A stretch of 38,311 bases of DNA, taken from positions 1 through 38,311 of IMG/VR virus record IMGVR_UViG_3300020045_018875; one strand, given 5' to 3'. Below, piece after piece: positions 282 through 37,987 of this stretch. This DNA comes from a virus. Lineage: Duplodnaviria > Caudoviricetes. A program made the translations under genes and the position numbers. Position 1 is the first letter of the stretch. Each line of letters begins with the position of its first letter. Under the pieces are notes generated by a model. That model did not search any database. It was not told the DNA's origin and saw only the letters and a list, made by a program, of their open reading frames with translations.

Positions 282-878
282 ATGGAACATGCAAGTATGG
301 AAATGTTTAGCGCAGAGTTCAAAGATCTCATGGAAGCATTGCTCAAAGCTAAAAATGAGTTCTTACCCATTACTAAATCAGGATACAATAGCCATTTCAA
401 ATCACATTACGCTAAGTATGAAGATTATGAGCGTGCTTGTGGCCCAGCTTTAAGAAAGTATGGCGTTACCTGGGCACATATTCCATGGCTATATGAAGGC
501 CAGCTTGTCGAACTCACTATCTTTACTCATATCAAGACTGGTCAATGGATGAAAGGAATGATTCCAATTTCGCCTACAAAGCAAGATTCTCAAGGAGTAG
601 GGTCTTATATGACCTACATGGAAAGATATGCGTTAAAAGGCATGCTTGGCGTCTCTGGCGAAGAAGATGATGATGGTAACTATGATAGTGGTAAATCTTC
701 AGGCCCAAATATCTTCAAAGATCAGGTTCTAGAACTTCAAGATCTCATAAAGGGATGCTCTGATCCAAAGAAATGTTATCAAAATATACTCTCATTCAAC
801 AAGATAACAGATCTTAATGAACTTCCAGCAAGCTCTTACAATAGTGTTAAATCATACATAAAGAATTTTAAAGGTTAA
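282..878 (+). CDS. erf: ERF-family single-strand annealing protein
   Basis: ALLKAK..F.PI.K...N.HFKS.YA motif and QG.GS.MTY.ERYAL..MLG...EDDDGN motif typical of ERF; SD aaagga. Confidence 0.88.
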   Translation: MEHASMEMFSAEFKDLMEALLKAKNEFLPITKSGYNSHFKSHYAKYEDYERACGPALRKYGVTWAHIPWLYEGQLVELTIFTHIKTGQWMKGMIPISPTKQDSQGVGSYMTYMERYALKGMLGVSGEEDDDGNYDSGKSSGPNIFKDQVLELQDLIKGCSDPKKCYQNILSFNKITDLNELPASSYNSVKSYIKNFKG

Positions 879-8474: not shown

Positions 8475-8825
8475 CTAGTATTGGGCGTAGAATCCTGAAA
8501 CAGCAACTAATCCTGAAGTAGGAGCAGATGCAAATTTCACGAAAAATTTAGTTCCTTGACTGACTGATAATTCAGATGCGCGCTCACCTCTATTAGTTCC
8601 AAAATCAAACAGTTGGAATGATTCTGCAGCTAAATAGATATGATCATTTACTCCATCAAATGATATATAGATTGGTGCATTTGTTGCATTCTGAAAATTC
8701 AAAATTCTACATGGATAGGGTAATCCTGTAGATGATATTATGGTATATGATCCTGTTATACTTCCAAAAGCCATTGATTGCAATGGAATTGGATACGCTC
8801 TGACTGCTATTGCGTTACTTGCCAT
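8475..8825 (-). CDS. Small beta-rich virion protein (start revised to MASNA)
   Basis: N.TN.PIYISFDGVNDH motif shared with 8827-9144. Confidence 0.55.
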   Translation of the reverse strand: MASNAIAVRAYPIPLQSMAFGSITGSYTIISSTGLPYPCRILNFQNATNAPIYISFDGVNDHIYLAAESFQLFDFGTNRGERASELSVSQGTKFFVKFASAPTSGLVAVSGFYAQY

Positions 8826-8826
8826 A

Positions 8827-9144
8827 TTATACTCCCATATGGAATGCATAGGTAGCTATATATACTTTCCCAGAACCTGAAGATTCTGCTTTTAGATAAT
8901 AGCCATCCATTCTTAAAAAACCTTTATTACTATCAGGAAAGTCTATATCTATTCGTGATTTAGCTGAGACTATATCATGATCTTGAGCCCCGTCAAAGCT
9001 CACAATGACGGGGATATTACTTTCATTGGTAATATGAACTGAAGAGATACATGCTATAGAGGCAACCAGAAATCCTGAGTAGGCTTTAGATAATTCTTCA
9101 ACATCTACTTCAATCAACGGTAGTGCATATACCATATTTTTCAT
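8827..9144 (-). CDS. Small beta-rich virion protein, paralog of 8475-8825
   Basis: NESNIPVIVSFDGAQDH motif. Confidence 0.55.
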   Translation of the reverse strand: MKNMVYALPLIEVDVEELSKAYSGFLVASIACISSVHITNESNIPVIVSFDGAQDHDIVSAKSRIDIDFPDSNKGFLRMDGYYLKAESSGSGKVYIATYAFHMGV

Positions 9145-9145
9145 A

Positions 9146-9343
9146 TTACTTTTCCTCTACAGCTGCTTGTTTGCTTTGTAGATTCTTAATATTCTCATTA
9201 GCTCTTTTGGCCACTTCAGACAAGAACTCAAAAAGAACATCATGACACTCTCCAGCAGGTGCGGTATTAGGGAAAACAAACTCATAACGTCTATCTTCCT
9301 TAGTAACTTCAAAAGAGACCAGTGATTTCAATGTAATTTCCAT
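9146..9343 (-). CDS. Hypothetical protein
   Basis: 65 aa, SD aaaagga, tight coupling to next gene. Confidence 0.6.
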   Translation of the reverse strand: MEITLKSLVSFEVTKEDRRYEFVFPNTAPAGECHDVLFEFLSEVAKRANENIKNLQSKQAAVEEK

Positions 9344-11782: not shown

Positions 11783-13678
11783 TTATGATTCTTGGGCTCG
11801 CTGAGATTCTTTAAGAGCCTTTATTATTTCAGCTCTATCTTTAGCAGGTAAACCTTCTAAAACTTTATCAGAAGAAGATTGTAGATCATCCAATGCTTTT
11901 TTAGTTAATGCAGCATTTTGAGCAGTACTTGCTTTGAAAAGTTTTCCCATAGCATCTCTAACAGCTGGACTTTGCATCATTTTTGTTGCAAATTGTCGTG
12001 CGGACTCAGCAATAGATAATTTCATAAGTGCTTTATAACCACCACTAAGCCAAAATGCTGCACCAGCATTAAAACTTCTTGGATTAAGATTTTCTGCCAC
12101 AACTTGTCTAGCATCATCAATTGCATGATATGTTCTCCAAAAGTCATTAGCTTTCTCTAATAATTTGCCCCCTTCAGGAACAATAGTATCGCTAAACTTT
12201 TTAAGTGCATCTTCCTGCATTTTGATCATTTCCTTTAAAATGCCTTTTGCTTGATCAGGAGTTTTTCCACTTGCCAATCGTTCTCCCATTTCTTTAATAT
12301 TAGTCCAAAGAGCATCAGGACTTATTAAGCCATCAGCTTCTTGAAGTGTATCTTGAAGGATAGATTTTTCATCTCTTAAAAATGATCCAGCTTGTGAATG
12401 TTGAGATAATCTCTCTATTTTTTTGCCTAATGATCCCGTATCTCTTAATTGATCTCTTAATGGATTAAGATCGACTTTCTTTCCTTGCTGAATAGCAGGA
12501 TTAATCACTTGATTGTCGAATTCATTATATGCTTTTTTACCCAAACTTTTTGTGAATCCAGGGAATAAACTATATGTTAAATATATTCCATTTTGAACAT
12601 TCTTACCAAATTTCTCACTACCAGTATATGCTTCTGTAAGCCATCCTGCGGCTTTTCCTGTAATGGCAACTCCTGATGCTTTTAATATATTTTTTGCTAT
12701 AGAAGGAAGTTTTTCTGGTGATATATTAGTTATATTTCCGATTATTTTCTTCGTTATATCTTTAGTTTTGTCTGCACTATTAACTCCACTTAAAACTGAA
12801 GAGGCAGCTCCTTTTAAAGGATTAGCGATGACACCTATTACATCTCCTACTTCGTTCCATATTTCATCTGTAGGATTTTGAGATGCTACATATTTTTCAG
12901 CATCTGTTCCTTTTACTGCTTTTGATAGGCCTTTTTTTAAAGTTTGTGTAGACGGAATAAGATTTAATGCATCCTCTTCCCTATCGCCTCGTTCAAGATT
13001 TCTTAAAATATCTTGCGCCGATCTATGTTCATATGATCCGGGTTCACGATTTTGTAATTCCTGCTTCCATCGCTCTATTCCCTCTAATCGTTGTTCTGGA
13101 TTTAACCTTTCAGGGCCTCTTAAAGCTTGTAAAGCGAATGCAGCGGTATCACCTCCTGAAGCTAGTCCAACTGCTCTTGTTCCTAATCCAGCAAGTAAAT
13201 TACTGGTTTTAGTTTTAAAATTAGATTCATGTTGATTGGCTTGAGCCTGTTGTTGCTCTAGCATCTCTAAATTCTTAACTGTTTCTGGTGATATCTGATC
13301 TGTAGGTACTATCTGACCACCAACCTGAATCGCTAGTGGTTCATTATTGTTACCACGAATAATGGTTGGTGTCTGATTTTGACTCATACCTTGAGATGAT
13401 CTTCCTGTGCCAAAAAGTTTATCTGCAATGCTTGAAACATGATCACCTAAAGATTTTGGTTTTAAATGCTGCTCTAACCAGAATTGTCTTTGTTTTGGGT
13501 CTTTGATATCAAAAACGTAATCAGGAACATTCCGTTGTCTTCCTAATGCTCTTTCAATAATCAGATCATCTTCATCCTGTTTCTGTTTGGCAAGCTGAGA
13601 CATCCGCTCTTCTCTTAATTTATAACCTTCACCAAGTCCTTCGCTAATAGCGTCATATAAAAAATTTTTTCTTGCCAT
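11783..13678 (-). CDS. Probable internal virion/DNA ejection protein
   Basis: 631 aa, helical, K/A/Q-rich with hydrophobic patches; position after the pilot-like gene. Confidence 0.55.
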   Translation of the reverse strand: MARKNFLYDAISEGLGEGYKLREERMSQLAKQKQDEDDLIIERALGRQRNVPDYVFDIKDPKQRQFWLEQHLKPKSLGDHVSSIADKLFGTGRSSQGMSQNQTPTIIRGNNNEPLAIQVGGQIVPTDQISPETVKNLEMLEQQQAQANQHESNFKTKTSNLLAGLGTRAVGLASGGDTAAFALQALRGPERLNPEQRLEGIERWKQELQNREPGSYEHRSAQDILRNLERGDREEDALNLIPSTQTLKKGLSKAVKGTDAEKYVASQNPTDEIWNEVGDVIGVIANPLKGAASSVLSGVNSADKTKDITKKIIGNITNISPEKLPSIAKNILKASGVAITGKAAGWLTEAYTGSEKFGKNVQNGIYLTYSLFPGFTKSLGKKAYNEFDNQVINPAIQQGKKVDLNPLRDQLRDTGSLGKKIERLSQHSQAGSFLRDEKSILQDTLQEADGLISPDALWTNIKEMGERLASGKTPDQAKGILKEMIKMQEDALKKFSDTIVPEGGKLLEKANDFWRTYHAIDDARQVVAENLNPRSFNAGAAFWLSGGYKALMKLSIAESARQFATKMMQSPAVRDAMGKLFKASTAQNAALTKKALDDLQSSSDKVLEGLPAKDRAEIIKALKESQRAQES

Positions 13679-13679
13679 C

Positions 13680-14540
13680 TTACATTCCTCCAGTAACTTT
13701 TAAGTATTCAGGTAATGCTTTACGTATAATTCCAGCGCCTATTTGCGTAACATCACCATATCCACCACCGTCATTCTTTAACTGAGCTACACTACGTTGG
13801 CTATTTCTATACATATCACCCAATGTTCCGAGTGCCTGTCCTCGTCGTGCCAGTTCTTGTTGATTCTGAGCTAATCCGAGCTGAGCAAGATCATGTCTTT
13901 GTCCGAACTGTTGGTTACGCAATCCCATTCCCAAAGTAGCAATATCTCTTGATCTATTTAACCCTAAAGCCTGTTGTCCTTGAGCTAACGATCCTAAAGT
14001 TCCTGCACGCTCTAGCCCGTATTGAGATTTCATAGCTGCAAGTTTAGATTCTAGATCTGATCCTGCTTTACCAAGTTGACCTATAAGAGCTGAGCTATTG
14101 AGTCCACCGGCTCCAGCAAATTGTTCTGCAAGACCTGGAACAGTCTCTTCTCTGAACTGTTTACGTGCCAAGTCTGCAATAGGCCCAAATTCAGTATCTT
14201 GCATAAGTTGAGGGGTATAATCTTTGAGTTCATCGAATCCAAGTTCTTGTCCTGTAGGAAGATCCTGCTGAATAATATCAGCCATAGCCTGTGTATCGAG
14301 TGAGGGGAATTTACCTATGAACTCATCGGGGTTCTTTGCAAATTGATCAGCATAATTGAGAGCGATCCGTTGCAATGGTTCAGGTAACGTCTGAATGACT
14401 TTAATATCATCATCACTGTATTTAACGGGAGTGTTACCCTTCTTTATATTCTTATTCTGTTTATATTTGCTGATCCACCCGCCAATAAGTCCAGCGAGTG
14501 AAATTGCTGCTCCAGCTGCAAGTGCTACAGGAAAAGGCAT
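13680..14540 (-). CDS. Probable DNA ejection/pilot protein
   Basis: N-terminal Gly/Ala hydrophobic segment; Q/L/G-rich; F...GG..SSA motif typical of podovirus pilot proteins. Confidence 0.55.
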   Translation of the reverse strand: MPFPVALAAGAAISLAGLIGGWISKYKQNKNIKKGNTPVKYSDDDIKVIQTLPEPLQRIALNYADQFAKNPDEFIGKFPSLDTQAMADIIQQDLPTGQELGFDELKDYTPQLMQDTEFGPIADLARKQFREETVPGLAEQFAGAGGLNSSALIGQLGKAGSDLESKLAAMKSQYGLERAGTLGSLAQGQQALGLNRSRDIATLGMGLRNQQFGQRHDLAQLGLAQNQQELARRGQALGTLGDMYRNSQRSVAQLKNDGGGYGDVTQIGAGIIRKALPEYLKVTGGM

Positions 14541-25601: not shown

Positions 25602-26276
25602 TTATTTTGGTTCATAAAATACTTTAAGCATATCACTCCTTGTCTTTTCTGGGTCGAGGCTCATTCCAGAAACCATAAAAAGTTCTTTTTGACATTGAAG
25701 AGGATTTCCACAAGCATCAGATTCCAATTTCTTTACAAACCATCCACTACCATTTCTTGAATAACATTCTTTAAAATCTTCAGCTATCATTTCAAATTCT
25801 TTCATAGCTATCGCATTTTCTTTATATTCTTTCTGAATGTGAGAAAATGAATGAATGTAACTTTTATAAGACTCTAATATCTTTCTTCTATTTTCAATAC
25901 GCTCAAACTCCGCCTCTCCTGAATATTTCTTTTCAACATGTTCTATTACTGCATCTGTTGCCCTTAGTGCAACAGGAACTGCTACTGCAATAGTTCCAGC
26001 CAATATTAAATTTTGAGGAAGATTTTGCATAAGCACTTGAGTCGCATGTGATCCAAAATTTTGCATTCCATTGGAAAGAATAGGTGTATTAGTATCTAAA
26101 GATTCCTTAATATTTTGACTAGTCTTCTCAATAGAATTTCCTATATTTTGAGAAGCAGGCTCTGCAAAATGCTTTCCAGCATCTGCACAATAGCCATCTT
26201 TTTGAGGTTTTTTATCAGGATAAGCCAAAGACATAAAAGATATAGTCATAGTAATCATCATCATCATTTTTTTCAT
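25602..26276 (-). CDS. Exported/membrane moron protein
   Basis: MKK plus hydrophobic signal-like N-terminus, central TM segment, coiled coil. Confidence 0.65.
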   Translation of the reverse strand: MKKMMMMITMTISFMSLAYPDKKPQKDGYCADAGKHFAEPASQNIGNSIEKTSQNIKESLDTNTPILSNGMQNFGSHATQVLMQNLPQNLILAGTIAVAVPVALRATDAVIEHVEKKYSGEAEFERIENRRKILESYKSYIHSFSHIQKEYKENAIAMKEFEMIAEDFKECYSRNGSGWFVKKLESDACGNPLQCQKELFMVSGMSLDPEKTRSDMLKVFYEPK

Positions 26277-26314
26277 ATAATTCCTTAATGCTTTTTAAAT
26301 TATTTTTAGTTTTC

Positions 26315-26767
26315 TTATTGTATTTTAGTTGTTTCTGAAACTATATTGTTATATAGTTTATAAAGCTTTTTCAGCAGAAAATACTCCATGCATACACGAA
26401 CAGCAATATGCTGCATTCTATCTAATTCATTACGATGAACGGTTAAAGTTGGGCATAAAGGCTCATTTATTGCTTTTTCAATATCTGTATTAGTATCCAA
26501 AGCATGAGCAATATACTGTTCAAGTCTATTAATTTCTAACCAAATCAAGTGCTTTTGTTCATTATCATAGCCATAGCCCAAGCAACTAAACAGCTCTGAT
26601 GCCTCTTCATTAATTTCATCGATAATCTTTTCTCTTCGATTGATCTCGTCTCTTAATAATTCAATCTTTTCAAATCTATTAAGCTGAGCCATTATCTCAA
26701 CATTTTCTGTTGATGTTTTTGCCATTAAAGGGCTCAAAGATAATAATGTTAACAATATATATTTCAT
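26315..26767 (-). CDS. Exported helical moron protein (start revised to MKYIL)
   Basis: MKYILLTLLSLSPLMA signal peptide; SD aaagga. Confidence 0.65.
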   Translation of the reverse strand: MKYILLTLLSLSPLMAKTSTENVEIMAQLNRFEKIELLRDEINRREKIIDEINEEASELFSCLGYGYDNEQKHLIWLEINRLEQYIAHALDTNTDIEKAINEPLCPTLTVHRNELDRMQHIAVRVCMEYFLLKKLYKLYNNIVSETTKIQ

Positions 26768-26869
26768 CTTTTTTTCCTTTTGTTCATCCACTCTTTGATT
26801 AAAGTTTTACCGAATGTTAAATATAGAATAAAGATACAGAATGGTATAATGAATTCTCCCGTTATCATA

Positions 26870-27352
26870 TTACACCGGCCCTGTTGCTACTGCACCGGCT
26901 AATCCACCACAAGCTGCTCCTACCATTGAAGCCGCTTCAATTGGTGCAGCAAACTGAGCGCTCAAGGACATGCTAACAACAGGATAAAGAGGGCCTGTAG
27001 CCAATGATACAACATGAATAGTGCCATAGCCAACAGCATATACTGCGCCTTTTCCAACCCAGAATCCTATAACGCCACCCCAATAGCCACCACCATTAAC
27101 CCTTCCTTTGATATCCATAGAATATCCATCAGAACATTCTTTGATATCTAAGTAAGCATTACCAGAATTAAGTATGGCAGCAAGCTTAGTCGTATCCATT
27201 GATCGTAACTGTTTGCTTACCATATAGTTTGGTATATCGGCGTTGAATTCTTTTGATGATATATTGTAATGAGATGGGAACTTTTGAATTGCTAATTGGC
27301 CAGCATTAATAGCTGAACAGAGAGAGAGTAAAATAATAATGATTCTTTTCAT
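26870..27352 (-). CDS. Exported protein with GG motif and Gly-zipper hydrophobic tail
   Basis: MKRIIIILLSLCSAINA signal; ..KGRVNGG|GYWGGVIG...GAACGGLAGAVA. Confidence 0.65.
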   Translation of the reverse strand: MKRIIIILLSLCSAINAGQLAIQKFPSHYNISSKEFNADIPNYMVSKQLRSMDTTKLAAILNSGNAYLDIKECSDGYSMDIKGRVNGGGYWGGVIGFWVGKGAVYAVGYGTIHVVSLATGPLYPVVSMSLSAQFAAPIEAASMVGAACGGLAGAVATGPV

Positions 27353-30253: not shown

Positions 30254-30724
30254 TTAAAGTATCTTTTTGAGTTGTTCTTGAGTTAGAAATAGACATGTAC
30301 TATGAATAAATCCATACACTAATGCATTGAGTATATCTGAGTCAGTATAAATATATTTTGATAATCCAAAACGATCTGCAGTATTCCATAAAGCTGATAA
30401 AGCTAAGGATACACCAGAACTGGTTGAGGCCTCTTTAATATCATTGTTTAAAAGAAAATCATGGGCTCCATGATAAATAGCACGATCAACATCAGATGCT
30501 TTTACAATACTATTATTGATCACTTTACTATCTTTAATATATCCAGGAAGTTTTTCAACAACAGATATGTTTTTGCTTGTGTAGAATGCTAATGCAGCTC
30601 TTCCTGAAGTGTCTCTTGTAATAAAATGATAAAGTTTGATAGTGTCTTGAGCTATAAGATTATTATCCATAGTGTGTACACTAAAAACCAATAATAATAA
30701 GGCTAATAAAGAGATTTTAAACAT
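30254..30724 (-). CDS. Exported/membrane protein (start revised to MFKIS)
   Basis: MFKISLLALLLLVFSVHT signal; hydrophobic C-terminal helices; SD aagga. Confidence 0.6.
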   Translation of the reverse strand: MFKISLLALLLLVFSVHTMDNNLIAQDTIKLYHFITRDTSGRAALAFYTSKNISVVEKLPGYIKDSKVINNSIVKASDVDRAIYHGAHDFLLNNDIKEASTSSGVSLALSALWNTADRFGLSKYIYTDSDILNALVYGFIHSTCLFLTQEQLKKIL

Positions 30725-30794
30725 AGCTCTTCCTTTTATAAAAGATTGATAATTCCTATAAAGTGATATCATGATTCCAAATATAGTTCAATGA

Positions 30795-32357
30795 TTATAT
30801 CTTCTTTTTAAGTATCGATATTTTTTGTTCAATACCTCGATACATTAAAGCTTCTTTGATGTGATCAGGTAAGATATTATCTTCTCCTGCAATATCAGCA
30901 ATAGTACGAGCAACTTTAATTATTTTATGATAACTACGCATGCTCATATCAAACTTTTCAAAGCATGTATCTAATAGAGTTCGTGCTGTATCAGTTAAAG
31001 GACAATAGGTAGAAAGCTCAGATGGAGTTAAATAAGCGTTAACTTTATCTTGCGAACCATATCGTTCCTGTTGTTTTTGACGTGCTTTTATGACACCTTC
31101 TTTTAAAACAGTAGAGCTTAAATCACTTCCTGGATTATGCAATTCAGATATGTCTACACTTTGAACAAATATCTGGAGATCTATCCGATCTAAAAATGGT
31201 CCCGATATTTTGCGTAAATAGTTATAAATATGAATCGGAAAGCATTCACATTTCTTTTTATTATTGCCTACATTACCACAAGGACATGGGTTTAAAGCAC
31301 AAATAAGCATAAATGAACAAGGAAATGTTACTGATCCTTTAGAACGAGCAATCGTAATCTGTCTTTGCTCAATAGGATTTCTTAAAGATTCAATAGCTCC
31401 TCTGCTAAACTCAGCAAGTTCATCAAGAAACAGAACTCCATTATGAGCTAATGACGCTTCACCAGGTCGTATCATAGTATGTCCACCACCAACTAAACCA
31501 GACTCTGATGTTGAATAATGTGGGTTTCTAAATGGCCTATCTTTTATAAAATGAGAGACTGTTGATATCGCTGAATGTATACGATTAACTTCAAGAATCT
31601 CATTAGCTGACATAGGAGGCAATATACTTGGCAATGCACTAGCAAGCATAGTCTTACCTGACCCAGGAGGGCCCATTAAAATACAGTTATGGCTTCCAGC
31701 TGCAGCTATTTGAAGCATGCGCTTTGCCATTTTCTGTCCAGAAATATTAGCAAAATCTAAAAGTACAGGATCTTTTTGTTCAGGAGCTACAATTGAAGAT
31801 AGCGTAACTCTTTTAGTCTGTGTAAATAGAATAAAGTCCTGGATAGAGTGGACTGGAATTATGGTAATATCTGGAATATTAGTAAGTGCATTAACATAAT
31901 TTTTAGCAGGAATAACTATATTTTTGATACCAAATTTGTGAGCATCTAATGCTACACCCATAATGCCTGTGACAGGATTAATAGTACCATCAAATGAAAG
32001 CTCGCCCATGATAACCGTCTCTTTAGTAAATGTACTGTTAAGACGTATCATACTGAAATGTGCCAAGATAGCAGTAGCAATTGGTAAATCGAACTGAGAA
32101 CCGACCTTATTGAGCGTGGCTGGCGCAAGATTTACCACTATTCTCATTCCCTTTAGGTTAATACCTAAAACGCTCAAAACTGCGGTAATTCGTTTTTTAC
32201 TTTCTTGGACTGCACGATCAACCATACCAACTATATTAAATATAAAGCTTTTTCCATTAAACTGATCTGTAGATATCTCAACAGTAATAAGATGCGTCTC
32301 TATACCGACAATAATAGCTGATAAAACTTTGGTAATATTAGAATTTTTATACTTCAT
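30795..32357 (-). CDS. comM: ComM/YifB Mg-chelatase-like AAA+ helicase (start probably MKYKN at 32357)
   Basis: Lon-like N-domain (VNLAPA.L.K.GS.FDLPIA), Walker A GPPGSGKT, RPFR.PH, PGEASLAHNGVLFLDE, NPCPCG..C.C, SGP.LDRID, ARTIAD. Confidence 0.93.
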   Translation of the reverse strand: MKYKNSNITKVLSAIIVGIETHLITVEISTDQFNGKSFIFNIVGMVDRAVQESKKRITAVLSVLGINLKGMRIVVNLAPATLNKVGSQFDLPIATAILAHFSMIRLNSTFTKETVIMGELSFDGTINPVTGIMGVALDAHKFGIKNIVIPAKNYVNALTNIPDITIIPVHSIQDFILFTQTKRVTLSSIVAPEQKDPVLLDFANISGQKMAKRMLQIAAAGSHNCILMGPPGSGKTMLASALPSILPPMSANEILEVNRIHSAISTVSHFIKDRPFRNPHYSTSESGLVGGGHTMIRPGEASLAHNGVLFLDELAEFSRGAIESLRNPIEQRQITIARSKGSVTFPCSFMLICALNPCPCGNVGNNKKKCECFPIHIYNYLRKISGPFLDRIDLQIFVQSVDISELHNPGSDLSSTVLKEGVIKARQKQQERYGSQDKVNAYLTPSELSTYCPLTDTARTLLDTCFEKFDMSMRSYHKIIKVARTIADIAGEDNILPDHIKEALMYRGIEQKISILKKKI

Positions 32358-32380
32358 AGAATACAAGCATAACATGCATT

Positions 32381-32400
32381 GCATTTATTGCAATAAATGC
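32381..32400. promoter_or_regulatory. Perfect 20-bp palindrome in divergent promoter region
   Basis: gcatttattg|caataaatgc; overlaps TTGCAT (32379-84) and fills the spacer to TATCAT (32401-06). Confidence 0.7.
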
Positions 32401-32413
32401 TATCATATATTGT

Positions 32414-33370
32414 ATGAAGAGCGAAAATGTAAAAATCGGATTATTAAATAAAGTGCTACAAGGCAAGCATGTAACCAATGCTCCTATCGGATATGACCAT
32501 ACTATTATTAATGGTCAATCATTTATTGCTCCAGATGCTCGTGCTCCTATGATCAAAGAGACTTTTAAGCGTTATGCATATGAAAAAATAAGCATTAATG
32601 CCTTAAGCATGGATATGGAAAAAAAATACGGATTTCCTCTTGCACGTTCTACTTTACATAAAGCATTAAAGAATCCATTTTATTACGGCAAAATGGTTTA
32701 CAAAGGCCAGCTGTATGACCATAATTATGAACCTCTTATATCTGAAGAACTGTTTAATGATGTTCAACAAAAAATAGGTAGCAGATCTTGCAATAGGGGA
32801 GCAAAAAAAGGATTCTTATTGCCATTTTTATATCGTAAACTTATAACATGTGGTCAATGTGGTGCAGTTCTTTCAGGTGACCTAAAAAAAGGACGCTATA
32901 CCTACTATCGCTGCACAACAAAACATGGCTATCCTGCAATAAAAGAGGAAGTAATCACTGCAGCTCTAAAGCCATTATTTACATTGTATGGCATAAAAGA
33001 AGATATCTTTGAAGATCCACATCGTATGACCTTATGCTTTAACATGTTTATAGAATCTTGCTTTGTTAACTCTGAGGGTAAGATAGAAGTTAAGATTAAG
33101 ACTCATATTAGTCCATCAAGTCATGCTTACATTGCCGATTATATTAACAATAAAAATATGATTGTACTGCAAAAGTCACCTGAAGCATTGCATGCTGTTA
33201 AAGAGGCTATTGCTGATCCGATATTACAATATTGCATGCAACCAAAAAGTATTGACGAGATCGCTGAACATCTTGCTATTGAAATAACTGAAGCACAAAC
33301 TAAGGTATTAGATCTTTACCTAGAAAATTCATTAGAAGAAACGGAAGATAGTAGATGGAGAACGGTATAA
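32414..33370 (+). CDS. Large-serine-recombinase DNA-binding modules (recombinase domain + zinc ribbon, no catalytic domain) fused to DprA-like winged helix
   Basis: Starts at SENVK.G...K...G.....AP.GY; L.NP.Y.G, EPLIS.ELF..VQ, CGQCG...YYRC; C-terminal IL.YC..PKSIDEI...L...........LDL.LE......SRW. Confidence 0.75.
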   Translation: MKSENVKIGLLNKVLQGKHVTNAPIGYDHTIINGQSFIAPDARAPMIKETFKRYAYEKISINALSMDMEKKYGFPLARSTLHKALKNPFYYGKMVYKGQLYDHNYEPLISEELFNDVQQKIGSRSCNRGAKKGFLLPFLYRKLITCGQCGAVLSGDLKKGRYTYYRCTTKHGYPAIKEEVITAALKPLFTLYGIKEDIFEDPHRMTLCFNMFIESCFVNSEGKIEVKIKTHISPSSHAYIADYINNKNMIVLQKSPEALHAVKEAIADPILQYCMQPKSIDEIAEHLAIEITEAQTKVLDLYLENSLEETEDSRWRTV

Positions 33371-33555
33371 AGAAACAGATAAGTATAAGAATAGATCAGG
33401 AACTTCTTGAAAGAATGAAGGATATGGTCTATTGGAATCCTGGATGGACTTTAAATGATCTCATCGAAATAACTCTTAGAGAAACAATATATAGTATGGA
33501 AAAGTGCGAGAAAAGACCTCAAAAAAATCTAAAACCCGGTAGAAAAGTTACCTAA
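33355..33555 (+). CDS. RHH/Arc-like DNA-binding protein
   Basis: KKQISIRID.ELLERMK...Y......LNDLIE..LR. Confidence 0.7.
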   Translation: MENGIKKQISIRIDQELLERMKDMVYWNPGWTLNDLIEITLRETIYSMEKCEKRPQKNLKPGRKVT

Positions 33556-35547: not shown

Positions 35548-36081
35548 CTAATCCTTATTTTTTTCAATAGTAGATTTATCAAGGCTTGTCTTATCAGGAA
35601 CTTTACCAGAAGAGCCAAAGTCTTGAAGGTATACGTTAATGGGTTGTTTATCTTGCGTAGGATTTAGTTCTTTTTTGAGATTGTTACGCCACTTCTCTGA
35701 TCTTCGATAATCTCTATTGTACATTGCCATTCCCCTTGTAGCCATATTCCCATCAGCTTCACGATATAAGGCTTTCTCAAAGATACGATGGCCTGCTAAG
35801 TATTTAAACTCTTCAACCATCTCTTTAAGCTCTGGGCATAGATTATAGTAATGGTTTAATTTTCGATACGTAATTTTGTGCTTATTAAGCCACTTTAAAA
35901 TAGTAACCATCTTGTCATACTCTTCAAACATTAAGAGCAAATCTTCGCCATATTTAATAAGCAATTCTTTAGGAATCTTCCAAGTATCTTTTTTAGCAAT
36001 AGTCAGTTCGGAATTCATCTCTTTACGCTTACATGCTTTTGATATTTTCTTCGGCCTTATGCTATGTTTTATAGTTTTCAT
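35548..36081 (-). CDS. Probable terminase small subunit
   Basis: HTH-like segment then helical hairpin and C-terminal INV strand; upstream of terL. Confidence 0.5.
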   Translation of the reverse strand: MKTIKHSIRPKKISKACKRKEMNSELTIAKKDTWKIPKELLIKYGEDLLLMFEEYDKMVTILKWLNKHKITYRKLNHYYNLCPELKEMVEEFKYLAGHRIFEKALYREADGNMATRGMAMYNRDYRRSEKWRNNLKKELNPTQDKQPINVYLQDFGSSGKVPDKTSLDKSTIEKNKD

Positions 36082-36481
36082 GCTTTTTATCCCGATTGAT
36101 AGGAGTTATTGAGAATTCTGTACGTGGCTCATAGGCATAGATCTTGCGTGCGGAAATTGAAGAAACTTGAGCATCATCTTTATAGATTATGGAAGTACCG
36201 ATTTCACAAACGAATTTGATAAGATTATCAAGATCTGGGCGTCCATAGTGCAGCGTATTCTCTTTTAAAGGTTTTAGTTTTTTGGGTACATTATTCATAT
36301 TCATGAAGAATGTTACATCAAGATGGAGAGGGCCATCAAGAAGAGGTTTTTCATTATGTTGATTTTGCACATGAATACCATAAACGAGTTTAGCTGATTG
36401 TTGAGCATCATACATCTTTCTTTGATAAGATATACGAGGTCTCATGAGGGGAATGGGATCACCAGGTACAATGTATATCAT
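36062..36481 (-). CDS. rusA: RusA-family Holliday junction resolvase
   Basis: G.P.P..RPR, RPDLDNLIK, Y.DD.QV catalytic motifs. Confidence 0.88.
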   Translation of the reverse strand: MIYIVPGDPIPLMRPRISYQRKMYDAQQSAKLVYGIHVQNQHNEKPLLDGPLHLDVTFFMNMNNVPKKLKPLKENTLHYGRPDLDNLIKFVCEIGTSIIYKDDAQVSSISARKIYAYEPRTEFSITPINRDKKHENYKT

Positions 36482-37168: not shown

Positions 37169-37987
37169 TCAGTATTGTTCATATCCTTCAGGTCTTTCTT
37201 TCTCAGTTGTACGTAATACTTGTGCTAATTCTTGTTGATTAGCTTGATTAAATGTACTCAAAAAGTCTTTTATTGCAATAGGTTCATGTCCTGCATAAGG
37301 ATTTGGCACGCCATTTTTCTGATAATAGGTTCCAGATCTGTCCCTTTGGTATTTGGACGCGAAAGGTCCTGTGGCATGAACAAAACTTCGCGCCACATTT
37401 TCAGGTTTTAAGAGATTTTTTTCAGACGGAGGACTTGTATTAGTGAAAGAAGATATAGATTCATCCATTTTTTGAATAGTTTTTATCTCTTCTTTCTTAA
37501 GATCTTTATAATTTAATTCATTAAAGAATCTATGGTTACGATCAGTCTGCAGATCAATTAAACAGAAGAAAGAAAACGTTACTGCTTTTAGCCAAGAAAA
37601 CAAAGAACACATATAAAATTGCATCTCTGGACTTCTTAAAACTCCAGTCAACTTATAGTGAACCGCTTTCTTCCAACCAGGATACGTTTTAACTATATAA
37701 CCTTGGTTCTCAAGATCAGATAAAAGAAAAGAGATATAAGTATCAGATGCTTTTAGATAATCAGACATATAACGAAGGCTCATACGAATAGACATGCCAC
37801 GAGAAGTTAAAGAAACAAACATTTGAATAAGACGGAACCGAAGACCTTCTTGCTTACCTTTGCCATGATCACGCCAATAACATAACTTCTCATATCTTTC
37901 CACAGGCGAACACACCTTGAAAAGATATTTTATTTTTCTTCGATTTTTCTTGACTTTATTTTTTTTGTTTGTTATTCTATTATTCAT
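37169..37987 (-). CDS. Winged-helix protein, possible replication initiator
   Basis: SLRYMSDYL..S...IS..L.DLE.QGYI.K wHTH; first gene of the leftward operon before rusA. Confidence 0.5.
   Translation of the reverse strand: MNNRITNKKNKVKKNRRKIKYLFKVCSPVERYEKLCYWRDHGKGKQEGLRFRLIQMFVSLTSRGMSIRMSLRYMSDYLKASDTYISFLLSDLENQGYIVKTYPGWKKAVHYKLTGVLRSPEMQFYMCSLFSWLKAVTFSFFCLIDLQTDRNHRFFNELNYKDLKKEEIKTIQKMDESISSFTNTSPPSEKNLLKPENVARSFVHATGPFASKYQRDRSGTYYQKNGVPNPYAGHEPIAIKDFLSTFNQANQQELAQVLRTTEKERPEGYEQY

Follow-up and report, generated by a model that had tools for sequence, protein, structure and literature searches.

To our knowledge, ComM has been described only as a helicase of natural transformation that is recruited by DprA and usually broken by mobile elements. 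In the phages considered here, ComM stays intact and has as its partner a DNA reader derived from an integrase. The stretch of DNA that was analysed as a whole (IMG/VR virus record IMGVR_UViG_3300020045_018875, 38,311 bases; hereafter the window) carries comM head-to-head with a gene for a 318-residue protein, the adaptor, in which DNA-binding domains of serine integrases are joined to a DprA-type winged helix. In V. cholerae and H. pylori, according to PMC12012524, DprA docks onto ComM at its C-terminal Mg-chelatase part; the DprA-ComM pairing is species-specific, and the DprA winged helix is reported not to bind DNA. The phage module shares with that pair the family of the partner's C-terminal winged helix, the ComM helicase family and the occurrence of matched pairs. 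It differs in that the adaptor has integrase domains for double-stranded DNA and lacks the DNA_processg_A domain, which serves single-stranded DNA and RecA; in that it is phage-borne, with a ComM clade of its own; and in that its DNA-binding domains vary in number and kind. We regard the module as a variant of the DprA-ComM recruitment pair whose adaptor is neither a DprA nor a recombinase.

The remainder of the adaptor recalls the large serine recombinases (PF00239 + PF07508 + PF13408; structures 4KIS and 6DNW), with which it has the recombinase and zinc-ribbon domains, the zinc ligands and the fold in common. In contrast to them, it lacks a catalytic domain and keeps just a stub of the preceding helix; its model lacks the long coiled coil, and a winged helix has been added. 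With this domain content the adaptor is predicted to be unable to cut or join DNA. In Tn7, TnsD and TnsC act as a sequence-specific recruiter and an AAA+ motor; here too a non-catalytic DNA-binding adaptor would place an AAA+ ring on DNA, but the folds are unrelated and the module holds no transposase or nuclease. Mobile elements inserted in comM likewise bring this gene next to one of the recombinase family (reviewed in PMC12378983); there, however, comM is broken and the recombinase whole, whereas here comM is whole and the recombinase headless. No phage ComM with such a partner was found in titles and the beginnings of abstracts, a search whose coverage mostly leaves aside subscription papers, and the module is apparently undescribed.

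We propose that the adaptor probably recognises preferred sites on double-stranded DNA and probably docks there the ComM encoded by the phage itself, the most probable task of which would be the unwinding or migration of branched intermediates in the recombination of phage DNA. Taken whole, this proposal falls a little short of an even chance. The parts of the module are:

30795..32357, minus strand: comM, YifB-family AAA+ helicase, 520 residues from its likely start (TIGR00368; open frame to 32384)
32414..33370, plus strand: adaptor gene, 318 residues, serine-integrase DNA-binding domains and a DprA-type winged helix with no catalytic domain (Pfam, AlphaFold2, profile comparison)
32540..32779, plus strand: Recombinase domain (PF07508), residues 43-122, E 2.7e-11
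32831..32938, plus strand: zinc ribbon (Zn_ribbon_recom, PF13408), residues 140-175, with C146, C149, C167 and H171, E 7.2e-8
33200..33367, plus strand: DprA-derived winged helix, residues 263-318, the predicted ComM-docking part (profile, hhalign, AlphaFold2 fold)

An intact comM, divergent from the 318-residue gene, had been predicted from the sequence, and both points are borne out. The product scores 476.6 bits against TIGR00368 YifB/ComM (cut-off 362.4), the two frames diverge, and comM runs uninterrupted within the circular genome, neither split nor truncated by an element. Its start at 32357 is likely because the closest homologue is 520 residues long. The protein matches Legionella ComM (8RXD, E 1e-92) and has the ChlI (Lon-like), Mg_chelatase and Mg_chelatase_C architecture. 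The Walker A lysine, the DE of Walker B and three arginine residues show no variation across 16/16 phage-clade and 104/104 other ComM proteins, and these ATPase motifs are likewise kept in the ComM of loci L353-L355, L357, L359 and L397. Between the window and its near-copy G001, comM shows 40 synonymous and 9 non-synonymous codon differences (19 and 10 in the adaptor), a pattern indicating that comM evolves under purifying selection. Sixteen proteins, all on contigs of at most 40.6 kb, form a long-branched clade among the 120 closest ComM proteins; the named close relatives of the window's ComM are Babeliales, Dependentiae or TM6, and matches in GenBank phages are 33-48% identical (25 listed of 27). 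At residue 472 of the window's ComM (529-residue numbering), 12 of the 16 clade members have D or N and 96 of the 104 others K or R. This position falls in C-terminal helices near the reported DprA contact and offers a lead for orthogonal pairing.

The C-terminal peptide of the adaptor that the original prediction had likened to the DprA winged helix does start at 33215, and the likeness holds at family level. Pfam DprA_WH matches 12 of the 36 relatives in the alignment (E<=0.1; best 5.5e-8), other winged-helix Pfam families match at most one or two of the 36, and hhalign aligns residues 260-318 of the family profile to the tail of one Babelota DprA with a probability of 97.3% (E 1.6e-11). AlphaFold2 folds the tail into three helices and a beta wing, at a predicted local distance difference test score (pLDDT) of about 90; its Foldseek matches are only generic winged helices, and those listed include no DprA structure. 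The adaptor family profile matches 239 of 261 genomes of the Babelota phylum. The strong matches listed are mostly frames of about 450-550 residues, the size of full recombinases, and the single weak match per genome is the C-terminus of DprA in 10 of 10 genomes picked. Against a profile of these 10 DprA tails, residues 263-304 of the window's adaptor score 31.4 bits (reversed sequences, at most 6.9) and all 36 members at least 15 bits. This test is partly circular because the tails were chosen with the adaptor family profile, although their identification as DprA rests on Pfam. The DNA_processg_A core (PF02481), present in the 10 Babelota DprA proteins, is absent from 36/36 adaptors. By its profile matches, the tail is of DprA origin. 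Going by residue spacing and an alignment with R. palustris DprA (3MAJ), V. cholerae residues L350, E353 and L354 would map to adaptor L299, Y302 and L303; the mapped L299 is hydrophobic in 35 and the mapped L303 in all 36 members. By analogy with DprA, we think it quite probable that the tail docks ComM.

Such a tail could also act on the host. The adaptor might compete with DprA for host ComM, or mixed hexamers might poison ComM, so as to inhibit natural transformation. ComM function is often suppressed by mobile elements, according to PMC12378983, and the tail is close to host-type DprA. A decoy, however, needs neither an ATPase-intact ComM of its own nor DNA-binding domains, and interference with transformation, one of the purposes first suggested, leaves the carriage of such a ComM unexplained. 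We consider it very unlikely.

The rest of the protein consists, as foreseen, of serine-integrase DNA-binding modules. PF07508 and PF13408 are both matched, and the top Foldseek matches of the adaptor model are integrase C-terminal domains on attP DNA (6DNW and 4KIS). Among the aligned family members the Recombinase domain is present in 36/36 and the zinc ribbon in 32/36, with the zinc ligands C146, C149, C167 and H171 conserved in 36, 35, 35 and 31 of 36. The AlphaFold2 model, made from the 36-sequence alignment (pLDDT 88; predicted template modelling score 0.48), has only short helices after the zinc ribbon. The Resolvase catalytic domain is absent across the whole window genome, and the frame upstream of the adaptor is closed. 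With domains of this kind the adaptor very probably binds DNA, and their family suggests that it may do so with site specificity. Full recombinases align over about 50-65% of the adaptor query; its matches in the ESM Atlas are generic recombinase clusters, all below 0.9, and those in GenBank phages are annotated integrases or recombinases, or unannotated partial matches (15 listed of 89). A sequence search of solved structures with the first adaptor alignment gave nothing useful, and no part of the broad adaptor alignment was conserved well enough to scan DNA with. A tree of the DNA-binding part (FastTree, rooted at the midpoint, with 45 of the recombinases drawn from a longer list) unites 35 adaptors with one full recombinase (support 0.98) and separates them from 29 Babelota recombinases and 44 others. 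Descent of this part from a Babelota recombinase clade is not supported, there being no nesting among the 29 sampled.

The tail is present in 52 of 189 proteins collected, a set drawn partly from the best 150 of 17,518 matches. An N-terminal catalytic motif is found in none of the 52, as opposed to 94 of 100 long proteins without the tail (the motif patterns differing slightly between the two groups). The fusion appears from these counts as a conserved family. It is not a uniform one: several tail-bearing members have two to four tandem recombinase domains, mostly with no zinc-ribbon match. P0165 (four recombinase domains, DprA_WH above cut-off), P0166, P0202, P0204, P0305, P0199 and P0208, whose genomic context is locus L359, are of this tandem kind with a C-terminal tail. 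In P0278 and P0269, recombinase and zinc-ribbon domains are attached directly to a superfamily-2 helicase (ResIII/Helicase_C), a covalent counterpart to the pairing of a helicase with an integrase DNA reader.

Linkage to comM, on which the adaptor idea had been made to depend, holds as well. An intact adaptor is always found beside an intact comM, at seven of seven independent loci including the window (ComM 39-55% identity) and also in G001. L083 and L397 were found via the adaptor, L397 by a tail-motif scan blind to comM, and the remaining loci via comM. Three more adaptor/ComM pairs have the same longest contig size for both partners (3408, 5122 and 12434). The head-to-head cassette of comM, adaptor and a small downstream gene recurs in L082, L083 and L353 (ComM 50-55%, adaptor 27-38% identity), at different genome positions; in L357 and L359, comM is followed by a protein with two recombinase domains; and in L397 (L397:2446-6057), an intact comM is followed by two paralogous adaptors, 31% identical to each other. 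Two of the five tail-motif loci, L394 and L398, were chance matches. The divergent cassette includes two further elements:

32358..32413, no strand: divergent intergenic spacer, 56 nucleotides, with a 26-nucleotide palindrome at 32378-32403 and CAAG(T/C)AT-like boxes, likely overlapping promoters and an operator
33355..33555, plus strand: ribbon-helix-helix (RHH)-type protein, 66 residues, overlapping the adaptor stop codon

In three of the four cassettes the spacer can be aligned and measures 56 (window), 56 (L082) and 55 (L083) nucleotides; CAAGTAT is repeated in L083 and L353. A promoter scan did not call the spacer and gave fewer sites than shuffled sequences did. The downstream gene had been named as RHH, and its product does have an RHH-type sequence pattern; Pfam adds only a weak match (BrnA_antitoxin, E 0.0066). 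Homologues 36-44% identical lie directly after the adaptor in L082, L083 and L353, and none was found beside the tandem-type loci. This protein likely regulates the divergent spacer.

Shared regulation might be all that unites the two genes. The 318-residue protein would then be a transcription regulator, or what remains of a serine integrase whose former target was comM, with no contact to ComM. Mobile elements are known to insert into comM (PMC12378983), truncated comM lies beside full recombinases in the unrelated viral records L245, L362, L365, L366, L368, L375 and L377, and winged helices frequently bind DNA. Here, however, comM is whole and to all appearances under purifying selection, the tail is specifically DprA-derived, a winged helix reported as non-DNA-binding, and no tail-bearing protein has the catalytic motif; nor is there a comM within 1.5 kb of 30 Babelota recombinase loci. 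We give this explanation a low probability.

Descent of the tail from DprA, conservation of the fusion as a family and the intact comM beside every intact adaptor seen lend much support to the adaptor idea; the interpretation built on it is partly supported. The purpose of the module is less certain, and the distribution of the module in its phage family bears on it. Among 76 terminase-related viral loci, 43 longer records together with G001 and G002 were searched whole and the others scanned locally. comM and the adaptor were found only in G001 and G002 among the records searched whole, that is, in 2 of 22 records at least 90% complete. The other 20 of these 22 lack both genes, and the local scans gave no further match to either. 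The module is accessory. It occupies at least three distinct genome positions, and a record that is 97% complete keeps it only as a deletion remnant. In L395/L396 (L396:5748-6060), the first 80 comM codons are followed by the tail motif in another frame, just upstream of ERF in L396, which looks like loss of the module by deletion. The window itself is the whole record of a circular phage genome with a 121-nucleotide terminal repeat. It encodes a P22-like portal, a terminase, a major head protein and one tRNA-Glu, and three genes for DNA transactions:

282..878, plus strand: ERF single-strand annealing protein (PF04404, E 2.4e-19; 38% identity to the G001 copy)
36062..36481, minus strand: RusA Holliday junction resolvase (PF05866, E 1.4e-18)
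37169..37987, minus strand: helix-turn-helix (HTH) protein, probable replication initiator (weak winged-helix Pfam matches only; 26% identity to the G001 copy)

Counterparts of the HTH protein in relatives are HTH_36/Phage_rep_O-like. Identity between the window and G001 is 93-98% for the module and mostly 85-100% for other genes common to both. The much lower identities of the rep-like gene and ERF indicate that these were exchanged while the module stayed.

A role in replication had been suggested on the ground that no other helicase is recognisable in the genome, and one could envision the adaptor loading ComM at the phage origin as replicative helicase. DnaB is absent from the genome family (no DnaB_C in 22 near-complete records), and in L082 comM is co-oriented with and directly upstream of the rep-like gene. 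The absence of another helicase is real, but it says little because relatives without the module also lack one. The near-complete relatives that dispense with both the module and DnaB, the divergence of the rep-like gene beside a conserved module and the record left with a mere remnant all weigh against this role, which we find improbable, though it could be an optional second mode.

Integration without an integrase was a further suggestion, with ComM assisting homologous recombination into a host site such as tRNA-Glu. None of 25 near-complete records has a tyrosine integrase, and both the window and L082 have tRNA-Glu close to the module; however, tRNA-Glu also occurs in 3 of 8 module-free relatives, for which reason we rejected it as a module-specific attP. 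Within the phylum of a Babeliales assembly, 3 of the 261 genomes contain the terminase family; two of the contigs concerned are phage-sized and one is short, none has chromosome flanks, and no prophage supports integration. The sole long-contig case, a 30-kb phage of the window's family with 40% GC within a 72% GC contig labelled Actinomycetota (G046:C2:513000-543000), is probably a chimeric assembly. Both integration and replicative use lose support because 20 of the 22 relatives are without the module, none has DnaB and tyrosine integrases are lacking; integration we regard as very unlikely.

Action of ComM on phage recombination intermediates is the purpose we prefer, and we put it at an even chance. 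The tail would bind the C-terminal Mg-chelatase part of ComM, as DprA does in V. cholerae and H. pylori, while the recombinase and zinc-ribbon domains would bind double-stranded DNA without cutting or synapsis, in place of the DprA body that binds single-stranded DNA and RecA. With the body so replaced, ComM recruitment would become independent of competence. A matched phage ComM would insulate the pair from that of the host, as DprA-ComM pairing is species-specific. In the weakest step, the substrate would be a D-loop or fork arising from ERF annealing or replication and completed by RusA. If docking holds, the small DprA tail would be a portable loading tag and would give a direct way into how ComM is loaded and whether loading sets direction.

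Several observations weigh against this proposal. Pfam DprA_WH misses the tail of the window's own adaptor, which departs from consensus at Y302 (Q in 25/36) and S313 (G in 33/36). The tails in L357 and L359 are winged-helix-like by eye and with a weak Pfam match (13.1 bits, E 0.1), and our own profiles give them at most 3.5 bits. Genomic context covers a minority of the 52 tail-bearing proteins. The comM neighbour in L354 and L355 is a cysteine-repeat protein in which no winged helix could be detected. As ComM is described as acting on branched DNA, a tether to plain duplex might be insufficient, and the claim that the DprA body was exchanged for a sequence-specific binder stands as regards the DprA-derived tail and missing core but not as regards a site: repeat searches of the window gave no convincing repeat, iteron or att-like target. 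The window has its module between terL and portal, a long way from ERF. Unlike the module, ERF diverges between the window and G001, and all 8 module-free relatives compared also possess ERF.

L354 and L355 are members of the same phage family, with ComM on another branch. Their comM, partner and ERF genes overlap at stop and start codons, an arrangement that speaks for the proposal. The partner (L354:11494-12276, L355:7872-9233) consists of repeated cysteine-pair modules, by eye like the N-terminal repeats of phage HNH endonucleases, with no Pfam match above noise; an N-terminal winged helix in it was not supported (pLDDT 57). It is possibly a second, independent type of ComM partner.

The main rival to action on phage recombination intermediates is conflict with other DNA. 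The adaptor might steer ComM to the DNA of a competitor (a co-infecting phage, a resident serine-integrase element or a host locus) or to R-loops and D-loops made by defence systems, the DNA-binding part being swapped to retarget it. The patchy presence of the module, its several genome positions and its loss by deletion fit such a role, as does the variability of the DNA-binding part, from recombinase plus zinc ribbon to two to four tandem domains, the L397 paralogues for one ComM and the cysteine-repeat partner; full serine recombinases are, moreover, common in Babelota genomes. No target was found, however, the module includes no nuclease, and the DNA-binding domains of the adaptor are not nested among the Babelota recombinases sampled. 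We hold conflict to be possible but unlikely. It is tempting to speculate that a captured DprA-ComM docking pair with exchangeable DNA readers (one to four recombinase domains, paralogous adaptors) constitutes a re-addressable helicase that unwinds or remodels chosen double-stranded DNA sites of phage or competitors without nuclease or integrase activity, an idea we entertain only tentatively. If adaptors do aim ComM at chosen duplex sites, this would be a new kind of system; the module suggests a natural site-directed helicase.

The host of the window phage is probably one of the Babelota (Dependentiae), since the named close relatives of its ComM, the DprA-matching tail and the terminase family all point there. 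Further assemblies with terminase matches bear unrelated names, and binning may therefore mislead on the host. The module provides a handle on these little-studied Babelota phages, in which integrase genes and helicase genes are both lacking. Around the portal gene of the window, the accessory regions 30254-30772 and 25602-27352 hold several open reading frames with signal-peptide-like N-termini and no family match. Apart from an N-terminal piece of DnaB, a primase zinc finger and a small resolvase, a Pfam scan of 136 further open reading frames of nine relatives returned nothing. The module-free relative L342 (G005) has a stand-alone DnaB N-terminal domain (13426-13905) and a stand-alone primase zinc finger (8702-9208), possibly decoys or helpers of the host replisome.

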